Shown piece after piece: positions 2,489 to 11,444 of a DNA stretch of 11,444 bases (its first letter is position 1; each line of letters starts with the position of its first letter). Source of the DNA: an uncultured archaeon (GTDB lineage Archaea; Asgardarchaeota; Lokiarchaeia; Sigyniarchaeales; SOKP01); assembly GCA_964525635.1 (NCBI GenBank), contig CAZGJX010000120.1:1-11444 (forward strand). Reading direction: 5' to 3'. The notes under the pieces were generated by a model. That model was not told where the DNA came from. It saw only the letters and a list, made by a program, of their open reading frames with translations, and searched no databases. The position numbers were made by a program, and so were the translations under genes.

Positions 2489-2743
2489 ATTAATATTATA
2501 TTTTTTTTTTTCCTTGATTATTTGATTAAATGTTAGGTTATTTGTAAGGTAAATTTTTTATTTTTCAAAACTATTCCCTTTCTCCCTATATTCAAATGAT
2601 TTTAAAGAAATAAAATGATTCTAAAAAAAATATAACATTTAATCGATTATTTTGACATATCAGTAAAAATTAAAAAAAGAATATATATTAACTTCTTATT
2701 CTTTTATTAATTAAAGTTTTTTAGTCAAAGGTGAGCTTAATAA

Positions 2744-3571
2744 ATGAAGCGAAACTTTAAGATGATAGCTTTTTCTGTAGTATTCCAAGTTCCGATACTA
2801 ATGATTTTACTTATAGTAAGTCAGGATGCTAGTGATATTACTTTATTAATCCCTGGAGAAAATGCATATATTGATATTCTATATTTTTTTGTCTTTTCTC
2901 CTATTATTATGATTGTTTTAGTAATCCTTCTTGGAGTCCCTATGTCAATCAGATTTTTTAAATTACATAATGTAATGAAACTAAAGCGTTTCAGTTATGC
3001 GATTCTTCAAAATCCACATAAAGAGCTAAGATTTAGTACTATGATGACGAGAGCTATAGTTATGGGATTATTTGGCTTTAGCATTGGAATATTTCTCTCA
3101 CAACTTATTGATCATAATATTATTCTTGCTCTTTCAGGGAGTGATCTGATAGTGAATACAATAGCAACTCTCTTTATTATACCCTTTTTAATTATTATTA
3201 TTGCACCAATATGGCTTTTACAGGATTCAAGTATTATGTGCTCACAAAAATCAAGGAAAGAGGGTTCTAGATCATTACCTGATATAGAAGGTGCATATAA
3301 GGACATTTATAGTATAGTAAAAGGATATGTAGGGATTAGTACGCTCTTTGCAATAGGACTATTAGCTATAGAAAATTTTATTTTGGATTTAAATCCTTCA
3401 GATTGGCTACTTGGGCTTATCCTAATGATAAATATGCCCTTTCTATCTATTGCGGTTTGTATCCCTGCCATTCTATTTTATGAGTCTAAAGTAGTAAAAC
3501 TGAGTGAAGTTCTTAAGAAAAGCCTTCAAAAGAGAGGGATCAAAATTATAGAAGATATTGATAATATTTAA
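2744..3571 (+). CDS. Hypothetical multi-pass membrane protein (about 6 TM segments, 275 aa)
   Basis: Long ORF with repeated hydrophobic stretches and a basic loop. AGGTGA RBS at about 2729-2734. A T13 run follows the stop. Confidence 0.85.
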   Translation: MKRNFKMIAFSVVFQVPILMILLIVSQDASDITLLIPGENAYIDILYFFVFSPIIMIVLVILLGVPMSIRFFKLHNVMKLKRFSYAILQNPHKELRFSTMMTRAIVMGLFGFSIGIFLSQLIDHNIILALSGSDLIVNTIATLFIIPFLIIIIAPIWLLQDSSIMCSQKSRKEGSRSLPDIEGAYKDIYSIVKGYVGISTLFAIGLLAIENFILDLNPSDWLLGLILMINMPFLSIAVCIPAILFYESKVVKLSEVLKKSLQKRGIKIIEDIDNI

Positions 3572-3574
3572 ATC

Positions 3575-3587
3575 TTTTTTTTTTTTT
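3575..3587 (+). terminator. Oligo-T (T13) archaeal-type terminator
   Basis: T13 begins 4 nt after the stop of 2744-3571. Confidence 0.55.
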
Positions 3588-3607
3588 CTAAATAGGAGGT
3601 TATAGGA

Positions 3608-3667
3608 GTGATATTTAAGAATAGATCTGATGGATTCCTCCCTAAAACAATATTGTTTAGATATCAC
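3608..3667. repeat. 60-bp imperfect inverted repeat / stem-loop
   Basis: GTGATATTTAAGAATA ... TATTGTTTAGATATCAC followed by T6. It contains the perfect palindrome AAACAATATTGTTT (3645-3658). Confidence 0.5.
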
Positions 3668-4060
3668 TTTTTTACAATAATTGGAAAACTTAAAATTATA
3701 AAGCTTAATAAGAACTAATGGAAAGAATTAACCAAAATAAATAAACCTTATCAGTTCTGCTTTAGTAAACATTAATTATATTAATCAACTTTTTCATAAA
3801 AACTTCAGATATAAGTTAATTTACTTATATCTTTTTTATTTTAAAAAACTCCAATTAAAATTTTGAAGAAATTGCAGAGAAAAAAAAACAATTATTCTTA
3901 CTATATTAGAGTGAGTTTAGTAATTCCCCCATTTCAGTTCCAAATTCCATTAAAATTAATATATTTTCTATTAAAAACCTTTTTTTAATAAGAAAAAATT
4001 TATCTATAAAATTTTTATCAGAAAAATTTAATTAAAAAAAAATATTTCATTTTGAGAGAT

Positions 4061-4077
4061 ATAGGTTCAATTCCTGT
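4061..4077 (+). other. tRNA T-arm-like hairpin (not a complete tRNA)
   Basis: ATAGG-TTCAATT-CCTGT gives a 5-bp stem and 7-nt TTCRA loop. No D arm or matching acceptor 5' strand is found. Confidence 0.5.
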
Positions 4078-4154
4078 TACTTCAAACCCCATTTTTTATA
4101 TTATATTTTGGCTTTAGATCTGCTATTCTGCATTAAATTCAATTTGACTAATTT

Positions 4155-4181
4155 TGGTGAGAAGCGAAGAATCGAACCCCC
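4155..4181 (-). other. Degenerate tRNA 3'-end fragment
   Basis: Minus strand reads GGGGG-TTCGATT-CTTCG-CTTCTC-A-CCA: T-loop consensus, a 3' acceptor strand one base short, then CCA. There is no 5' half. Confidence 0.55.
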
Positions 4182-4340
4182 TATAAAAATCAAATTAAGA
4201 TAATAAAAGTTAATAAAAAAAAATTTTTTAATTTTTTCTTAAAAGAGGAAAAAAGCAGAAAAAGTTTATTTTAAAGGCTTCATCAATTTTAATATATACT
4301 AACATTTTAAAATGAGAAAAAGCAAATTTTTTCATACCTC

Positions 4341-4375
4341 TTAGGTTATTTAGCTTAATCCATAACGTAGCCTAA
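4341..4375. promoter_or_regulatory. Inverted repeat upstream of the GNAT-deacetylase gene (possible operator)
   Basis: TTAGGTTA-N19-TAGCCTAA (7/8), ending 52 bp before ATG 4427. Confidence 0.3.
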
Positions 4376-4426
4376 ATTCAAATTTTTTGGCTAATAAAAT
4401 GTCATATCTCATAAAAGGTATTCCTT

Positions 4427-6145
4427 ATGATTCGAACTCTTATAATCGATGGCCTTACTGGTTTATTATCAAAGCATAGAATGGAACAAGTAAAGGATAT
4501 ATTTCGGGTCAGTTTCCCATCGTTAGCGGGACTTGCAGATGAACTCCCGCTAAAACTAAAAGATCCTATACAGCACGGATATGTCTCAAAATTACTTATT
4601 TCGGAAAAAGGCCAACATGTTGTATTAGGTTTTGCTTTCGTAATTCATTTCCCACTAATCCAAGCCAGTTTTCTGGACTTCTTCGCGGTTCGCCCTAAAT
4701 TAAGAAGCGGAGGTGTAGGAGGTTCCTTATATGAAATTGTGCAAGAACATTGCCGCCAGATGGGAAGTCGTGCATTATACATAGATGTAAACCCAGATGA
4801 TCCTTCATTAATAAAAAATGCAACCGAATTGGCTCAAAATAGGAAACGTATTAGATTTTATGAACGTTATGGGTGTCGTGTTATGGTGAACAATGCATAT
4901 TCACAGCCTGTAGGTAATCCCCCCTCCTATTCAGTACTTATGATCGATAATCTTAGGCAGGAGGATTTTCCGGATATCTCTGATGTGAAATCCGCCCTTT
5001 CCCAGATATTTCTACTCCGCTTTCCGCGCTCTGTTACTACCGAATATATCAACATGGTTTTAGAATCGTTCAATGAGGAAGGATTCAGACTTCGCCCCAT
5101 AATAAGAAAGCGGGAAAGAAAATTACAAAGAATAAAATTACATAAAATAAAAGAACAACTCTCCTTGGTGTATAATCCTCACCATAAAATACACCATGTG
5201 CAAAATAAAGGATACATAGAAAGTCCGGTTCGTCTGCAAGCTATTATGGATGCATTAGAAGGTTCTCCGTTATTTAACATAGTCGGAGTAAAAAAATATC
5301 CTGACAAGATCATTTATGGATTGCATAGTCCAGATTTAGTTCAATACCTAAAAATTGTCTGCAGTCATATTAATGAAAATAATATTTTTTATCCTGACAC
5401 ATTTCCGATCCGGCGACCAAACAAGAAACCAAAGGACTTGAGTGTACAAGCAGGTTATTATTGTTTGGATAATGGCACTCCACTTTATAGGGGTGCATTT
5501 ATCGCTGCTAAAGCTGCTCTTAATACAGCACTTACAGCGGCAGATGAGATCCTTTCGGGTAAACGACTTGCTTATGCTGCATGTCGCCCACCAGGACATC
5601 ATGCAGGGATAAGGTTCTTTGGCGGTTTTTGTTATTTCAATAATGCTGCTGCCGCTGCTCAATATCTTAGCGAACATTACCGTGTTGCGATACTTGATTT
5701 GGATTTTCATCACGGAAATGGTACTCAAGACATATTTTATCGGAGAGCAGATATACTTACTCTATCCATCCATGGAGATCCTGATTATTGCTACCCTTAT
5801 TTTAGTGGTTTTTTGGATGAGATAGGAGAGGATGAAGGAAAGGGGTTTAATCAAAACTATCCTCTCCCCCCATATACTGGTGATTCCATCTATCTTAAAA
5901 CTTTGGACAATGCTCTTACCAGAATTAAAGATTTTCAAACTGACATTCTCGTTGTTTCCTTAGGATATGATATTCTTAAAGGGGATCCTTCCAGTTGCTT
6001 TGAGATCAGCTTCGATGGTATATCACGCATAGCCTCAAAATTGAAGGTCCTAAACATACCCCTGCTTATTATACAAGAGGGGGGATACCATATGGACAAC
6101 ATCAGGCAGGGTTGTGAAGCCTTTTTCAAAAGTTTCTTACCTTAA
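4427..6145 (+). CDS. GNAT acetyltransferase fused to a Zn-dependent HDAC / acetylpolyamine amidohydrolase-like deacetylase
   Basis: N-terminus has GNAT motif A (AVRPKLRSGGVGGSLY) and RFYERYG. C-terminus has ESPVR, GYYCLDNGTP, RPPGHHA, GGFCYFNN, DLDFHHGNGTQDIFY, SLGYD and QEGGY, so the catalytic and Zn-binding residues are present. Confidence 0.93.
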   Translation: MIRTLIIDGLTGLLSKHRMEQVKDIFRVSFPSLAGLADELPLKLKDPIQHGYVSKLLISEKGQHVVLGFAFVIHFPLIQASFLDFFAVRPKLRSGGVGGSLYEIVQEHCRQMGSRALYIDVNPDDPSLIKNATELAQNRKRIRFYERYGCRVMVNNAYSQPVGNPPSYSVLMIDNLRQEDFPDISDVKSALSQIFLLRFPRSVTTEYINMVLESFNEEGFRLRPIIRKRERKLQRIKLHKIKEQLSLVYNPHHKIHHVQNKGYIESPVRLQAIMDALEGSPLFNIVGVKKYPDKIIYGLHSPDLVQYLKIVCSHINENNIFYPDTFPIRRPNKKPKDLSVQAGYYCLDNGTPLYRGAFIAAKAALNTALTAADEILSGKRLAYAACRPPGHHAGIRFFGGFCYFNNAAAAAQYLSEHYRVAILDLDFHHGNGTQDIFYRRADILTLSIHGDPDYCYPYFSGFLDEIGEDEGKGFNQNYPLPPYTGDSIYLKTLDNALTRIKDFQTDILVVSLGYDILKGDPSSCFEISFDGISRIASKLKVLNIPLLIIQEGGYHMDNIRQGCEAFFKSFLP

Positions 6146-6565
6146 AAATTTCATGAAAAGTCTCTTCCATATCCACATTCAAGTTGGCATTTAAATAATG
6201 ATATATCATTTAGCTAATAGTTAATTAAATAGATATTTAATTTAAAAGAATAATAGGAGTTTTTTATATCAAGGAATTTTTATGGAATCTCGTTAATTTG
6301 AATATAAAAGTAATTTGGTTTAATATTTTGAAAATTTTTTAAAAAATGAATATAAAGATGTTGAGAAAACTAAAAACTATATTAAAACACAGATAGTTGA
6401 GTCTATTAAAATATAAAAAAAAATTGATTATTATATCAACAAAAAATACTAAAATAAGATCAAAATAATGTTTATTTCTATGGGAATATAATATCCTATT
6501 CTTTTTTTTATTTTAACTATTTCACAAGAAAGCTTAAAAATAGTAAATAATATATTGAGAACAAT

Positions 6566-7015
6566 TTAAAATTTACTTTTTAGATATTCATCAAAAAATT
6601 CCTGAGAATTATATATCTTAATAAAAGATTCGACTTTATTTTTGAATTCAGAATCATTAGTAATTAGGATCTCCGAATTTTCTATAAGAGCAGTTGCAAT
6701 GATAATACAATCAGGTAATTTTAAATTAATTTGTGATCTTATTTCTGCTGTTTTGTCAGCAATATTGATATTGAGATCTATTATCTTATATTTCTTATTT
6801 GAATAAAGTCCTGAAATGAATTCATCTTTTTCAATAATTTCCTTATTCTTATAATATCCTACACTTAATTCAGTAAGAGATATGATTGATATAATTCCAT
6901 TTAGTTCACTTTTTTCATTATCAATTTCTTCTAATATGGAATTAGAATATGAATAAAATGGTTCTTCCTTATTTTTTACATTTAGAAAAATATTAGTATC
7001 GAGAGTTATATTCAT
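6566..7015 (-). CDS. vapC: PIN-domain toxin (VapC family), TA module 1
   Basis: Acidic PIN residues LDTN, TEL, PDCIIIATA, ITND. Start 7015 gives an ATGA overlap with the antitoxin stop; 7021 is an alternative start. Confidence 0.92.
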   Translation of the reverse strand: MNITLDTNIFLNVKNKEEPFYSYSNSILEEIDNEKSELNGIISIISLTELSVGYYKNKEIIEKDEFISGLYSNKKYKIIDLNINIADKTAEIRSQINLKLPDCIIIATALIENSEILITNDSEFKNKVESFIKIYNSQEFFDEYLKSKF

Positions 7016-7245
7016 TCCCATTCGTCCCGTAATTGCTTTTGAAATTCAATACTTGATTCCATCCATGGTTTTTGATTTTTTAATATCTCTGAAATTTTAT
7101 TTGTACCAGATTTTCTAATAATTATTTTATCACCCTTTAGGTTAAAAATTAAGCGATCTCCTTGCATAATACCCAATTTATCTCTAATTTCTTTAGGAAT
7201 TGTAATCTGTCCTTTTTCACTTATTGATGATATTCCAATTATCAT
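7012..7245 (-). CDS. vapB: AbrB/MazE/SpoVT-family antitoxin, TA module 1
   Basis: SEKGQITIPKEIRDKLGIMQGDRL AbrB signature; coupled directly upstream of a PIN gene. Confidence 0.92.
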   Translation of the reverse strand: MIIGISSISEKGQITIPKEIRDKLGIMQGDRLIFNLKGDKIIIRKSGTNKISEILKNQKPWMESSIEFQKQLRDEWE

Positions 7246-7261
7246 AAATTATCATACTATC

Positions 7262-7305
7262 TTCTTTACTATATAATAAAGAAATCTTTACTTATAATTC
7301 TTACT
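7262..7305 (-). promoter_or_regulatory. TA1 promoter/operator
   Basis: Perfect IR TTCTTTA-N8-TAAAGAA (7262-7283) overlaps TTATATA about 30 bp before the ATG. Direct repeats TCTTTACT at 7263 and 7285 and TCTTACT at 7299. Confidence 0.65.
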
Positions 7306-7516
7306 CCTAAAGACTAAAAGAATTATAATTTCCAGAGGACTTAGATTATAACTATGGCTATTTTTTTGTTCAAAATTGAATTTTTTTATAATTTTGTTCG
7401 AGAATTTTTATATAGAACATACAATTTATAAATCTTAAAAATTAGAACCGATTGACATTATATCTTTTATGGATCTTCTAGAGGATTTACATTCTTTCTG
7501 GAAATATATGTTATAT

Positions 7517-7608
7517 ATGTTAATTCTGTCAAACTCTAATGATAAAACAGATATCATTTATTAGTATGAATTTAGGAATACCTCCATTTCACGAACATAT
7601 CCTATTAT
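7517..7608. repeat. Dispersed repeat copy B (left arm, core, short right arm; most diverged)
   Basis: Core TATTAGTATGAATTTAGGAATACCTCCATTTCA (7559-7591) is 27/33 to copy C. The left arm aligns ungapped to copy D (31/43). The right arm CGAACAT--ATCCTATTAT matches D (CGATCATAAATCCTACTAT). Confidence 0.8.
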
Positions 7609-7728
7609 AACAAAATTATATATTTTCCAGCGCCTTTTTTATATAAACAAATCTAAAATTTATAAATATTATATGATGATATTATCCTCATGAATAATAT
7701 TTCTTAATTTATTTTATAGATCTTCAGT

Positions 7729-8220
7729 CTATTCTAAAGATTTTGGTGAATTTTTAAGATCATTAAACCAAAATTTAAAATTCTTATTCAATGATTGAAT
7801 TTCTTTTTTTAGAAAATCATTTTTTTTTATTTTTTCATATAATGAAGAATCCATTGTAATGATACAATCACAATTACATATTGCACTAGCAAATATTAAA
7901 CAATCTATAGTATCATTATGTATTTTTTTTAGATTTGAAGCCAATTCAATGATTAAAGGATTGTATGTGTATGATAAACATTTTAGACGCGGATCATTTT
8001 GTATTGCATCAATTCCGATCATTAAATCTTGAGTATTTATCTGTTCATTTTTTACTATTAATTTAAATGCTTTAGCAGTTAATTCAAATATTGATAAATC
8101 TGAGTAAAAATATTCACTTGATTTATCATGGAGAAGGTTAATTAATACATCATCAGCTATGGTTTCAATTTTTATTTTTATAAAAGGTAGGAGATAAGAA
8201 GTATCAATAAAAATTTTCAT
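7729..8220 (-). CDS. vapC: PIN-domain toxin (VapC family), TA module 2
   Basis: IDTS, SIFEL, TIDCLIFASA, ITMD; ATGA overlap with the antitoxin. Confidence 0.9.
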   Translation of the reverse strand: MKIFIDTSYLLPFIKIKIETIADDVLINLLHDKSSEYFYSDLSIFELTAKAFKLIVKNEQINTQDLMIGIDAIQNDPRLKCLSYTYNPLIIELASNLKKIHNDTIDCLIFASAICNCDCIITMDSSLYEKIKKNDFLKKEIQSLNKNFKFWFNDLKNSPKSLE

Positions 8221-8468
8221 CTTTCATATTCCTCTCTAAATTCTTCCTTAAATTGTTTCCACGCATGATAACTTATCTTTATTTTCGGTGGAGTTTTTAA
8301 AATCTCTTCTAATGAATATAATTTTCTTATTATTAATTTATCTTGATGTATTGACATTATAATTGGTTGATTAGGCTTTAATCCAAGTCTTTCCCTAATT
8401 TCTTTTGGTGGGAATATTTCTCCTTTAGATCCAATCTTTAGAACCATTTTATTTTCAGTTATAGTCAT
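8217..8468 (-). CDS. vapB: AbrB/MazE/SpoVT-family antitoxin, TA module 2
   Basis: KIGSKGEIFPPKEIRERLGLKPNQ AbrB-like signature; coupled to a PIN gene. Confidence 0.9.
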   Translation of the reverse strand: MTITENKMVLKIGSKGEIFPPKEIRERLGLKPNQPIIMSIHQDKLIIRKLYSLEEILKTPPKIKISYHAWKQFKEEFREEYER

Positions 8469-8486
8469 TCTAATATAGATATAATC

Positions 8487-8520
8487 ACTCGAATTATTTA
8501 AGGTTTTCGAGTATATACTC
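8487..8520 (-). promoter_or_regulatory. TA2 promoter/operator
   Basis: Perfect IR ACTCGAA-N12-TTCGAGT (8487-8512) encloses TTAAATAA on the - strand. It overlaps the perfect palindrome GAGTATATACTC (8509-8520). Confidence 0.7.
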
Positions 8521-8629
8521 TCTAAGATTTAAAATATTTTTTATAAATCCTAAAAATAAGAATCAATTGAATTTATATCTTTTATAAATTATTTAAAAAT
8601 TATGATATATACTAAATTTTTCTGTTAAG

Positions 8630-8951
8630 CATATTACTTTTCTCATCCTTTAATAATATAAAAGTTATAATTTATTAGAGTGGGTTTAGTAATACCCCCA
8701 TTTCAGGTTTAAATTCCATTAAAAATAATATAATTTCTATTAAAAACCTTTTTTTAAAAAAAAAAATTCATCTATAAGATTATGATCAGAAAAATGTAAT
8801 TGAAGAAATATTTAATTTTGAGGGATATAGGTTAAATTCCCGTTAGATTTTTGAACAATTTTCAAGTACTATTTTAATAGGTTTATACTCCTAATCCTCA
8901 TAAAATAATGAATTTAGAAAATCAAGATGAAAAAATAGATTCGAACCCCTA
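8630..8951. repeat. Dispersed repeat copy C (left arm, core, long right arm; most complete)
   Basis: 8630-8705 is 72/76 identical to 10468-10543. From 8673 onward it is colinear with copy A, including ATAGGTTAAATTCCCGT (8827-8843) and GATTCGAACCCCT (8938-8950). Confidence 0.92.
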
Positions 8952-9006
8952 AAACTCATTTTAAAACCAAAATAATCAATATATATTCTGAATTTCATGC
9001 AAATCT

Positions 9007-9291
9007 CTAAATTCTCAATAATCTTTTACCATGAAAAATTGTTACAATTTCAACAATATCTTTATCATTATGATATACAATCCTATAGTTTTGAAGAATT
9101 AATTCTCTCATGTTTGGATCCTTTATTTCTGGGACTCGTCTCCCCATTTCAGGAAAAGATTTTAAGTTATCAATTGACTCAAAAATCCGTTCATAAAAAT
9201 AATCAGCATATTGTGGTGAATCATGAGATAAGTATTCGATTATTCCCTTTAAATTGCTTATAGCGGTATCAGACCATTTTATTTTAACCAT
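9007..9291 (-). CDS. RelE/ParE-family toxin, TA module 3
   Basis: IKWSDTAISNL...EYLSHDSPQYA...LKSFPEMGRRVPE...RELILQNYRIVY...IFHGKR is typical of RelE/ParE proteins. Confidence 0.92.
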   Translation of the reverse strand: MVKIKWSDTAISNLKGIIEYLSHDSPQYADYFYERIFESIDNLKSFPEMGRRVPEIKDPNMRELILQNYRIVYHNDKDIVEIVTIFHGKRLLRI

Positions 9292-9464
9292 GTTCGTGCC
9301 ATCTTCTTTACATCTTCGTGATCATGAATTTTCCCTTGTTTAATATCTTCCAAACCTCTTAGAATCTTTTGCTTTACGTAAAGGTGATACATTATATCAT
9401 CAAGAGTAACATCATCAGGAAGTTCCTTGATGAGTTGCATGATATTTTCTTTTTCAGTTGCCAT
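9279..9464 (-). CDS. Putative antitoxin of the RelE/ParE module
   Basis: 61 aa with LPDDVTLDDIMYHLYV...GLEDIKQGK, a pattern seen upstream of RelE/ParE toxins; overlaps the toxin start by 13 bp. Confidence 0.85.
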   Translation of the reverse strand: MATEKENIMQLIKELPDDVTLDDIMYHLYVKQKILRGLEDIKQGKIHDHEDVKKMARTWLK

Positions 9465-9634
9465 AATATTTTATCTCATTAATAATAACTAAATTTAAAA
9501 ATAAAAAATTTTTGATCAAAATAAGTTTTTTCAATAGTAATTAAATTTTAAAATATACATTATTCAGAAAGGATAATTCAGATTTCTGAAATTATATGAA
9601 ATAAAAAAAAAAGTTAAAATAGAGGATATTTATT

Positions 9635-10189
9635 TTATTCAGGACCTTTAATACCTAAAATAATTCTGGTTATTCCATTTACTATTAAAGAAATCGAAAT
9701 CATAGCAACGATAAATATTTCTCCAAGATCAGGAATTACAAAAATTAAAATCGAAAGAATTATAGTAATGCCTCCAACTAAAATAACAAATATTTTATAC
9801 CATTTTTCAGATTCTTTTAACATAATTCCAATAATTAACCTTGCCAATCCAATAATTAATAAACCTCCTGCTAATAAAAAGTACCATACTTCAAGCGCGA
9901 AATTAAAGTCATTTATAGTTATGATAATAACTGCTATAGAAATTACTATAGCAATTAATCCTGAAAAGAACTTTGTATTTGTATCTAAATTTTTAAATTT
10001 AGCTTCTGATAAAGAATTAATTAATCTTCCAAGGCCTGAAATTAATAAAGCCATTGAAAGAAGGACAATTACAATACCATTAGTTATTTCTGGGGATATC
10101 ATAGCTAAAATTGCTACACAAATCATCAATAATCCAATTAATATATTTGAAGTTTGAAATCTTCTATCTTTTGCTTGTTGTTCTCCCAT
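9635..10189 (-). CDS. HdeD/DUF308-family membrane protein
   Basis: Six hydrophobic helices with repeated LLISGLGRL / LLIIGLARL / LIVNGITRI motifs. Confidence 0.85.
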   Translation of the reverse strand: MGEQQAKDRRFQTSNILIGLLMICVAILAMISPEITNGIVIVLLSMALLISGLGRLINSLSEAKFKNLDTNTKFFSGLIAIVISIAVIIITINDFNFALEVWYFLLAGGLLIIGLARLIIGIMLKESEKWYKIFVILVGGITIILSILIFVIPDLGEIFIVAMISISLIVNGITRIILGIKGPE

Positions 10190-10467
10190 TTTAAATTTAC
10201 CTTTTCTGTAATTTATTAAAATATGAATTATATTAGGATAAAAGATGTATATAAAATATTTTATTATAAAAAATAAAAATAAGAAAAAACAAAATTTTTT
10301 TTTTTCATTACCTTTTATTTATTGATTAATTATTTTTTATATTAAATATAGAAAAATTGTACATTATCAATGTATATCATGAAAATTAAAAAAAAGTAAT
10401 TTTATTTCCTCTAAATCCTTTATCAAAATTTAATTATATTTGTAATTGTCATTGTTTTCTAAGCGAA

Positions 10468-10562
10468 CATATTAATTTTCTCATCCTTTAATAATATAAA
10501 AGTTATAATTTATTAGACTGGGTTTAGTAATATCCCAATTTCACGATCATAAATCCTACTAT
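10468..10562. repeat. Dispersed repeat copy D (left arm, core, short right arm)
   Basis: 42-nt exact match of 10476-10517 to 8638-8679. Core 10511-10543 is 30/33 to copy C. The right arm is shared with copy B. Confidence 0.92.
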
Positions 10563-10586
10563 CTTTCTAAGATTATTTCCAGACCA

Positions 10587-11009
10587 TTATGGAATTGGAT
10601 CAATTACTTCAATATCTGGAATTTTTAAAAAACTTTTATCATGAGTAAATAATTTAGATATATTTAACTCTCTCATTGAATTTAAGATTGTTGCATCACG
10701 TCCTCCTATACCTGTATGAGAGAATTTAATTAATTCTTCAAAAATAAAGTCCAAATCTTCAAATACTAAATCTGTGTAGACAAAATCAATTTTTGAGAAC
10801 AATTTCCATTTTTCTTTTGCTATTTGATTCCCCAATCTCTTAACAAGATAATGCATTACCTCGATTAAAACAACAACATTCACAGCAAATCTAATATTAT
10901 CATATATTTTATCAAAATGATTCTTTATATGAATATGTTCTATTGTTGCTGCATCAAGAAGATAGATCCAATAATTGGAATCAATAAAAACTATTGGTTT
11001 GTTTTCCAT
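10587..11009 (-). CDS. vapC: PIN-domain toxin (VapC family), TA module 4
   Basis: FIDSN, LIEV, GRDATIL, FTHDKSF, VIDPI; overlaps the antitoxin 3' end. Confidence 0.92.
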   Translation of the reverse strand: MENKPIVFIDSNYWIYLLDAATIEHIHIKNHFDKIYDNIRFAVNVVVLIEVMHYLVKRLGNQIAKEKWKLFSKIDFVYTDLVFEDLDFIFEELIKFSHTGIGGRDATILNSMRELNISKLFTHDKSFLKIPDIEVIDPIP

Positions 11010-11263
11010 ATTCTTTTTATCGACTCCGGTGTAGGTTGTTCATCTATTGGAGTTTTAATACATCCAACTAAGTTTTCAAATAATTCTTCTTTACTTAATT
11101 TCTTTTGAAGTATTATCTCATTATCTTTACCTATTTTTATGTTTAATTTATCTCCTGGATTAATATGTAATGATTCACGTATTTTTACTGGTAAAGTTAG
11201 ACGACCTCTATCATCAAGTTCAATATTTCCCATATAATCACCCATTCCCATATTATTACCCAT
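10991..11263 (-). CDS. vapB: AbrB/MazE/SpoVT-family antitoxin, TA module 4 (true start possibly 11233)
   Basis: LDDRGRLTLPVKIRESLHINPGDKL AbrB signature. Four in-frame ATGs; a GGTGA RBS lies just upstream of ATG 11233. Confidence 0.92.
   Translation of the reverse strand: MGNNMGMGDYMGNIELDDRGRLTLPVKIRESLHINPGDKLNIKIGKDNEIILQKKLSKEELFENLVGCIKTPIDEQPTPESIKRIWKTNQ
11227..11262. repeat. 18-bp tandem duplication at the TA4 start (probable operator)
   Basis: TTCCCATATAATCACCCA / TTCCCATATTATTACCCA (16/18). A TTTAAATA box lies at 11284-11291 on the - strand. Confidence 0.65.
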
Positions 11264-11444
11264 AATATTATTATTCTAATATATATTTAAAGATATTGAT
11301 TTCTTATATTTTTAATTTCGATTTGAGCTCTAATTTTTGTTATTATTTCTATAGATTTTTATTCCTTAGTGTCCTATAATTCTTATATGTCTCCATATTA
11401 CTTTCTTTTATAATACGATGTATCGTCTCTTCTTATGGTGAAGG

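Follow-up and report, generated by a model that had tools for sequence, protein, structure and literature searches.

A putative genus-specific gene-cassette array carrying toxin-antitoxin modules in a Lokiarchaeia archaeon

Introduction

Why should four mutually divergent toxin-antitoxin (TA) modules lie on one strand of an 11,444-nucleotide (nt) contig, punctuated by copies of a single intergenic repeat? Integrons are the textbook prokaryotic route for stockpiling and shuffling small adaptive genes. The only integrons reported from archaea are of the bacterial attC/IntI type (Ghaly et al. 2022, PMC9668308). The contig in question (CAZGJX010000120.1 of assembly GCA_964525635.1) comes from an uncultured archaeon of the Lokiarchaeia, and the original prediction, made from its letters, proposed either an undescribed cassette-accretion system whose recombinase acts in trans or serial insertion at one hotspot. 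Our comparisons support the cassette joints that this proposal entails, whereas an enzyme acting in trans is something that we infer. We conclude that the contig is probably a piece of a genus-specific gene-cassette array, the units of which are re-assorted by site-specific recombination through a putative enzyme.

The window analyzed here is this whole 11.4-kb contig (C120). Its genome (G000) comprises 4.45 Mb in 245 contigs with a G+C content of 26.8%, and was compared with those of its three congeners (G003, G016 and G024). All site sequences are read on the minus strand of the window.

Results

Co-oriented sites beside toxin-antitoxin genes

A repeat search recovered the four co-oriented copies that had been predicted in the window (A to D), each containing a 76-nt unit (3861-3936, 7516-7591, 8630-8705 and 10468-10543) at 61-95% identity, and copies A and C additionally share 176 nt at 87.5% identity. 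Together they form a diverged subfamily; the family as a whole is far better conserved, and an iterated nhmmer profile detects it about 60 times on about 25 contigs of G000, with E-values down to 1e-29. Neighboring copies on the same contig are co-oriented in 33 of 34 pairs (binomial P, 2e-9), and the 20-nt canonical core has no match at two or fewer mismatches outside the repeats of this genome. Most of the contigs bearing the repeat are small, and many terminate inside a copy. Cassette sites break metagenome-assembled genome (MAG) assemblies, and the accessory gene content of such genomes is therefore under-assembled.

As anticipated in the original prediction, the copies are not scattered but stand in co-oriented arrays associated with TA and accessory genes. 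The zone within 1 kb of a copy makes up 2.1% of the genome yet contains 10 of its 13 PIN toxin genes (P, ~4e-15). The 113 open reading frames (ORFs) on 19 repeat contigs include PIN, AbrB/MazE, ParE and VapB, together with AbiEii-like and OLD-like ATPases, AAA_21/AAA_15 families, restriction-modification methylases, leucine-rich-repeat proteins, GNATs and assorted enzymes. Units range from 0.2 to 6 kb, several hold two to five genes, and "empty" units consisting of arms alone also occur (C103:3128-3300).

The family is confined to one genus. Among 60 family genomes sampled by BLAST, it is strong only in the three congeners, and a 26-mer spanning one left arm (L1) and the core occurs in only three other MAGs, again the congeners, among 185,579 species representatives. 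The 14-mer TCGTRAAATAACTG occurs 9, 12, 5 and 13 times in the four genomes of the genus and zero times or once in each of 57 other family genomes, and its reversed control is absent from the genus. By our own estimate, chance would yield about 0.2 occurrences per genome. The 14-mer is roughly 50-fold over-represented.

Shorter sites also form arrays. One region of a congener (G024:C147:24000-33000) contains seven co-oriented minimal sites (..ATCGTGAAATAACTG), spaced 0.6-3 kb apart and without long arms, that bracket small genes, including a homologue of the second vapBC pair of the window (vapBC2). The long-repeat profile missed all of them.

A composite site with exchangeable arms

Each site consists of a left arm of one of two types, a core arm G-Y-R-AAA, a 6-base center, and then either one of several right arms or unrelated DNA. 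The majority form opens with a T-run, the palindrome TTTTCCATGGAAAA, about 8 nt of spacer and TTTTAATGGAAAATGGRT, and continues through the core GCAAAA-TAACTG into TTTTGCAAAAC, with the right arm extending for another 120-190 nt. Full copies span 130-190 nt, with a mutual similarity of 80-95%. The L1 left arm contains the palindrome and a second ATGGAAAA box, and the L2 left arm, of about 33 nt, has a TGATA..TATCA dyad (..TGATA-N8-TATCATCGTGAAA). At least three right sides follow: R1 (TTTTGCAAAAC plus 120-190 nt), R2 (TTTCACG..) and R3 (TATAAGGATAAA..), and some sites have no conserved right side.

The arm types mix and match at one and the same nucleotide. L1R1 is the most frequent combination (36 sites), followed by L2 with unrelated DNA (14), L2R1 (10), L1R3 (4), L1R2 (3) and L2R3 (1). 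The center following G-Y-R-AAA is TAACTG in most copies and varies by subfamily (GGACAG, TGGGGG and others), while the flanking arms remain alike. The canonical core forms a 7-6-7 dyad, TGCAAAA-TAACTG-TTTTGCA, in which 7 of 11 positions are symmetric; the dyad is weaker in the window copies. A covarying small hairpin that appeared by eye in the right arm was set aside, its register differing between copies.

The orientation of the cargo is mixed. Genes upstream of sites are co-oriented with them in 44 cases and anti-oriented in 26, and genes downstream of the right arm are co-oriented in 26 cases and anti-oriented in 30.

Units switch at a single nucleotide

Comparison of related loci places the switch between units at one nucleotide (...AACTG/T..., with the slash marking the switch), at the edge of the 6-base center and about 35 nt downstream of the palindrome. 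A cassette at C192:2966-4411 of G000 is 98% identical in G024:C85, and both boundaries of the homology, which opens with AAATAACTGTTTTGC and closes with GGACAGTTT, lie inside the core. At the site at C139:4851 of G000, AACTG/T is the switch point throughout, and the four genomes fall into three contexts on the left and two on the right. Here, the upstream cargo and the left arm are common to G000 and G003, which part company from the base after AACTGT; starting at that base, G000, G016 and G024 have the same downstream cargo, preceded by a different left side in each, one being an L2 arm.

The same pattern holds across the data set. Among all pairs tested, 13 cross-genome site pairs keep one flank at 88% identity or more (the upstream flank alone in 5 and the downstream flank alone in 8), and none of the 13 keeps both. 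At variable positions, left arms track the upstream cargo and right arms the downstream cargo, with the switch falling inside an invariant core of about 23 nt. Units are thus joined head-to-tail and re-assorted between species at a fixed point, each arm segregating with its own side.

Joints of this kind also occur in the window. At site D, the alignment of vapC4 and its L2 arm with G003:C230 continues as far as TCGTGAAAT, and from there the two genomes differ. At site A, the right side (2659-3925) is 94% identical to G024:C112 and the left sides differ. In the congeners, the window cassettes turn up one at a time and on separate contigs: the vapBC1 block in other surroundings at 87% identity (G003:C202 and G016:C107); the vapBC2 block at 81% between two minimal L2-core sites (G024:C147); the parDE block at 77% (G024:C24), with its DUF308 gene at about 67% in all three congeners; vapBC4 at 82% ahead of a canonical full site (G016:C346) and at 75% ahead of a minimal site (G003:C230); and the DNA of a GNAT-deacetylase fusion gene at 75% (G024:C85 and G016:C333).

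The expectation that cargo differences would break at the core was borne out, the breaks being nucleotide-exact where the sides differ in type. Neither of the two refuting outcomes named in the original prediction (copies scattered without a link to TA or accessory genes, or indels that do not end at the repeat) occurred in this comparison, which is cross-species, a metagenome scan having returned no strain-level relatives (protein identity, at most 51%). Mis-assembly is an unlikely origin of the joints: four independent assemblies show the same types of junction, and the longest exact shared stretch, of about 41 nt, falls below the k-mer sizes that two contig names imply (k87 and k141).

One insertion of another kind lies within a cassette. 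A 1.5-kb segment with a 438-amino-acid (aa) ORF (C139, 3181-4690) is not edged by a cassette site and is absent from otherwise 94-100% identical cassettes in G016:C560 and G024:C161; an 83% identical copy is present in G024:C25.

These joints bear on the alternative that no dedicated mechanism exists: a dispersed regulatory or selfish intergenic repeat, lying in accessory DNA that changes fast, would be shuffled along with its neighbors by duplication and ordinary homologous recombination. The full copies are long and similar enough for such exchange, and the window copies appear decayed. However, homologous recombination offers no way of fusing L1 or L2 at one nucleotide, and in several genomes, to right sides that are unrelated (R2, R3 or plain DNA), and it leaves unexplained both the 33:1 co-orientation and an over-represented 14-mer with nothing conserved to its right. 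A promoter or terminator role is rejected because genes after the right arm show no orientation bias, and a micro-ORF or gene C terminus running across the core is contradicted by at least three canonical copies, whose fourth codon is an in-frame TGA. We regard this alternative as highly improbable.

Comparison with integrons and pdif modules

The arrays resemble sedentary chromosomal integrons and clusters of attC sites lacking integron-integrases (CALINs), archaeal ones among them (PMC9668308), in being long, co-oriented arrays of small cassettes rich in TA and accessory genes, each unit ending 3' in a recombination site and cassettes being re-assorted between relatives. As with the Vibrio cholerae repeats, the site family is homogeneous within its lineage, and the crossover falls after G and before T(T), at ..CTG/TTT.. 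here and at G/TT in attC and attI. The co-orientation of sites and their re-assortment at a fixed crossover (13 of 13 pairs one-sided) are as in integrons. They differ from integrons and CALINs in the conserved right arm that often follows the joint, in having two left-arm and several right-arm types, and in cargo that is of mixed orientation and partly multigenic rather than mostly single ORFs facing the same way as the sites.

Neither the enzyme nor the site of an integron was detected. No IntI, a tyrosine recombinase distinguished by an extra domain, was found in the four genomes of the genus: the integron-integrase model TIGR02249 hits only XerA in G000, at 91 bits for the whole protein against a cutoff of 265, with 47 bits for the best stretch in the genome scan and with model region 188-234 unmatched. 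An imperfect attC hairpin (57-141 nt, with R''-L''...L'-R' boxes, RYYYAAC/GTTRRRY) was not recovered from 21 copies by RNAalifold, which gave only the 6-bp TTTTCCATGGAAAA palindrome, and the site contains no paired R boxes, in agreement with the earlier view that the repeat is not of the attC type. Because it lacks IntI and an attC hairpin and its cargo orientation is mixed, the array is not an integron.

A second parallel is provided by the pdif modules of Acinetobacter plasmids and by integrative mobile elements exploiting Xer (IMEX), in which accessory genes, often TA pairs, are edged by short sites (PMC6449649, PMC5357621). As in those systems, there is no dedicated recombinase and a housekeeping Xer is at hand, inverted arms surround a 6-base center, and the left core arm ends in ..ATAA like Xer arms. 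The pdif sites, however, have an 11-6-11 layout and alternate in orientation, whereas those described here are 7-6-7 at best, co-oriented, and equipped with long accessory arms. No archaeal pdif or IMEX case turned up in the literature searched.

A decayed CRISPR array was considered and rejected, since the CRISPR repeat of this genome (C81 and C240) aligns to the site no better than shuffled sequences do (P, 0.44-0.97).

Candidate recombinases

The search for tyrosine recombinases that had been called for yielded XerA in all four genomes, but nothing on the array contigs. The XerA gene of G000 (C14:49424-50347) scores 241 bits with NF040815 (XerA_Arch; cutoff, 220 bits), one ortholog is present in each of the three congeners, and in each of the four genomes XerA is the sole full-length match to PF00589 above the cutoff. 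The remaining PF00589 matches are a partial gene at the edge of contig C211 in G000 and one sub-threshold match in G003 (21.7 bits). XerA, a chromosome-dimer resolvase, is the leading candidate for an enzyme acting in trans because no other tyrosine recombinase has been retained by all four genomes, and we put it forward tentatively, as a possibility well short of even. Elsewhere in the genome, a search for dif-like sites returned two core-like dyads outside the repeats, both inside coding regions.

The partial gene on C211 (3-362) encodes the N-terminal 120 aa of a second, element-type tyrosine recombinase and runs off the contig edge. Homologues are absent from the three congeners, and those in three other genera are distant (30-41%); as the congeners carry the same sites, it was rejected as the cassette enzyme.

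This fragment is nonetheless relevant to the view that the units are small, integrase-less integrative elements, inserted serially into a short ..ATCGTGAAATAACTG target in the chromosome by a virus or plasmid integrase outside the assemblies, with L1-core-R1 as the attP-like form; the arrays would then be insertion scars and not the product of host-run capture. The four site types fit attP, attB, attL and attR (L1-core-R1, L2-core-other, L2-core-R1 and L1-core-R2/R3), and at G024:C161 an L2-core-R3 site, apparently unoccupied, takes the place of the L1-core-R3 of G000 and G016. Units of arms alone fit as well, as does an element-type recombinase at the edge of C211. Against it are the lack of a homologue of that recombinase in congeners sharing the sites, the lack of an integrase on any array contig, and the co-oriented arrays that minimal L2-core sites form around cargo (seven sites in 9 kb of G024:C147), which a passive target is not expected to form. 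Known cases of tandem accretion at one att site (lambda att logic; archaeal integrases of the pNOB8 and SNJ2 types, PMC8371274) likewise combine arms as attP, attB, attL and attR and regenerate the target upon insertion, but the units described here are of 0.2-6 kb, carry no integrase, use a non-tRNA target and number dozens per genome on one site family. We consider this explanation unlikely, although the cassette system and the serial insertion of small integrase-less elements may turn out to be the same thing.

Alternatively, the units could move as single-stranded DNA through an HUH transposase (IS200/IS605- or IS91-like), a class of enzyme that recognizes hairpins near the element ends and inserts 3' of a short, fixed word, with the arms as transposon ends and each right end recreating the target. 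Insertion is always directly 3' of ..RAAATAACTG, the 5' side alone is conserved at minimal sites, and both ends have palindromes nearby that could form hairpins (TTTTCCATGGAAAA, the TGATA..TATCA dyad and GTTTTGCAAAAC). Elements are strictly co-oriented, and TnpB-type genes are common in the genus. IS200/IS605 elements and the derived palindrome-associated transposable elements also insert 3' of a fixed word without target duplication, have subterminal palindromes and keep a strict orientation. Yet the Y1 transposase (PF01797) is unmatched in G000 (100% complete) and G024 (99%), with matches only in G003 and G016, and no TnpB match falls on the repeat contigs of G000. The cargo is diverse and of host type, and the center varies while the arms stay, behaving more like an overlap region than a fixed cleavage word. 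We regard movement by an HUH transposase as improbable.

Small serine-recombinase genes lie 2-3 kb from TnpB-like genes at two places in G000 (C51:16354-19114 and C22:18122-20859), neither on a repeat contig; this pairing suggests IS607-type elements.

A probable cassette array re-assorted by site-specific recombination

In the reading that we favor, each unit, read on the minus strand, would end in a left arm (L1 or L2) and the short core, and the next unit would begin right after the center, often with a conserved right arm (R1, R2 or R3). Conservative site-specific recombination of excised units would then let small packets, such as TA pairs, defense ATPases, methylases and enzymes, accumulate in one direction. 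A crossover at the edge of the 6-base center of a 7-6-7 dyad would match the layout of tyrosine recombinases, the center would vary between subfamilies as an overlap region does, and the arm combinations would correspond to attP, attB, attL and attR. The enzyme would act in trans.

Several observations weigh against this reading. No recombinase gene is linked to the arrays, and minimal sites conserve the left side and center with no right half-site, which is unusual for the core of a tyrosine recombinase. Some boundaries fall outside the core: G024:C112 retains 128 nt more of the right arm than copy A, and the vapBC2 homologue in G024 lacks the right arm present in the window. The dyad is weak in the window subfamily (GAAAT-N6-ATTAC), and the differing centers would block recombination among most window sites. 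Moreover, all four genomes of the genus are fragmented MAGs.

A bolder version, which we think doubtful, is that the genus runs its own gene-capture system, an independent archaeal counterpart of the integron, with a composite site, exchangeable arms and a 6-base center serving as an "address," worked in trans by XerA or another enzyme; arrays with different centers would then be separate pools. No description of such a site was found in the literature searched. A second, unrelated cassette-joining site in Asgard archaea, integrase-less and with nucleotide-exact joints, would mean that cassette capture evolved more than once, and would help to explain the turnover of TA and defense genes in a lineage related to eukaryotes. 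If the enzyme is XerA, a housekeeping resolvase would double as an archaeal gene-capture engine, much as Xer does for bacterial pdif modules and IMEX. The core of about 20 nt with its arms would offer a simple, testable substrate for finding the enzyme.

Layout of the window

The minus strand of the window carries three AbrB/MazE-PIN (vapBC) pairs (7245-6566, 8468-7729 and 11263-10587), a ParE toxin with its partner and a DUF308 gene, as identified with Pfam, and the plus strand carries the GNAT-deacetylase fusion gene and a transposase remnant (ORF 1051-2142) (Table 1). The four modules are of type II, with PF04014 and PF01850 in three and PF05016 in one, and toxin and antitoxin genes overlap by 4-19 nt. 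The 61-aa partner that overlaps ParE upstream has no family match. The PIN proteins cannot be aligned with one another by BLASTP and the AbrB antitoxins are 28-37% identical, confirming that the four minus-strand modules are mutually divergent. Scans of the window for tRNAs and Rfam families returned no match.

Two details of the layout originally proposed need amendment: the parDE unit also contains the DUF308 gene, and the GNAT-deacetylase gene lies on the opposite strand. The distances given earlier from TA genes to repeats were roughly right, but only for extended copies, with B lying about 112-138 nt past the vapC2 stop, D 25-44 nt past the vapC4 stop, and the extension of C ending about 50 nt past the parE stop.

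Table 1. Sites, cargo and associated modules in the window
Feature	Position	Strand	Details
Unit next to site A	2659-3903		Holds ORF275 (2744-3571); 94% identical to G024:C112:12172-13413
Site A	3904-3990	minus	L1-type left arm 3990-3938; core arm CTGAAA 3937-3932; center TGGGGG 3931-3926
"Ext" module upstream of site A left arm	3991-4200	minus	Non-coding; two T-loop-like motifs
Cargo: GNAT acetyltransferase and histone-deacetylase-family fusion	4427-6145	plus	PF00850 (8.6e-70), PF00583; antisense to array
Cargo: vapB1/vapC1 and ~70 nt upstream	6566-7318	minus	AbrB 7245-7012, PIN 7021-6566 (Pfam)
Site B	7406-7625	minus	L2-type left arm ~7625-7595; TC+GTGAAA 7594-7587; center TGGAGG 7586-7581; right arm 7580-~7406
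Cargo: vapB2/vapC2	7729-8517	minus	vapB2 8468-8217, vapC2 8220-7729 (Pfam)
Site C	8531-8760	minus	L1-type left arm ~8760-8707; CTGAAA 8706-8701; center TGGGGG 8700-8695; right arm 8694-~8531
Second "ext" module, upstream of site C left arm	8761-8960	minus	Sequence comparison
Cargo: DUF308 and parDE-like	9007-10189	minus	DUF308 10189-9635, putative antitoxin 9464-9279, ParE 9291-9007
Site D	10430-10580	minus	L2-type left arm ~10580-10547; TC+GTGAAA 10546-10539; center TTGGGA 10538-10533; right arm 10532-~10430
Cargo: vapB4/vapC4	10587-11298	minus	vapB4 11263-10991, vapC4 11009-10587 (Pfam)

The four window sites have three different centers. Only site C, with its L1-type arm, TGGGGG center and right arm, is a full copy; site A has 22 nt of right arm left (3925-3904), directly followed by the ORF275 block. 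Given these other centers and partly decayed arms, the window array may be old or separately "addressed." With three centers among four sites and one truncated arm, it may also be inactive, apart from a possible exchange between A and C, both of which have TGGGGG.

The "ext" modules are non-coding stretches of about 250-290 nt with two opposed T-loop-like motifs, and recur in G024:C85, G016:C333 and G024:C112. In the first two of these, the module follows the GNAT-deacetylase gene, and in the window it precedes it. An origin as a tRNA-tail att remnant was rejected, as only a generic T-loop of 10-12 nt matches and no specific tRNA 3' end does (32 tRNAs). A search for a conserved fold gave nothing convincing, with weak folding and little covariation on either strand, and there was no Rfam match.

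The GNAT-deacetylase fusion is one 572-aa protein carried as cassette cargo. Its relatives occur in many metagenome contigs at 38-51% identity over the full length, none of them at strain level (maximum, 51%).

The 275-aa product of ORF275 has no Pfam or NCBIfam match. G024:C112 contains both a filled copy of window positions 2709-3577 (94% identical) and a paralogous "empty" copy, in which 2708 is joined straight to 3578, and the 870-nt ORF275 piece is edged by TCTTTT runs. Just past the transposase ORF, a 128-nt sequence (2159-2286) is repeated dozens of times in the congeners at 85-93% identity; G003 alone has more than 30 copies, often at contig ends. The sequence probably represents the end of an ISL3/Mutator-like insertion sequence or a derived miniature inverted-repeat transposable element, unrelated to the cassette site.

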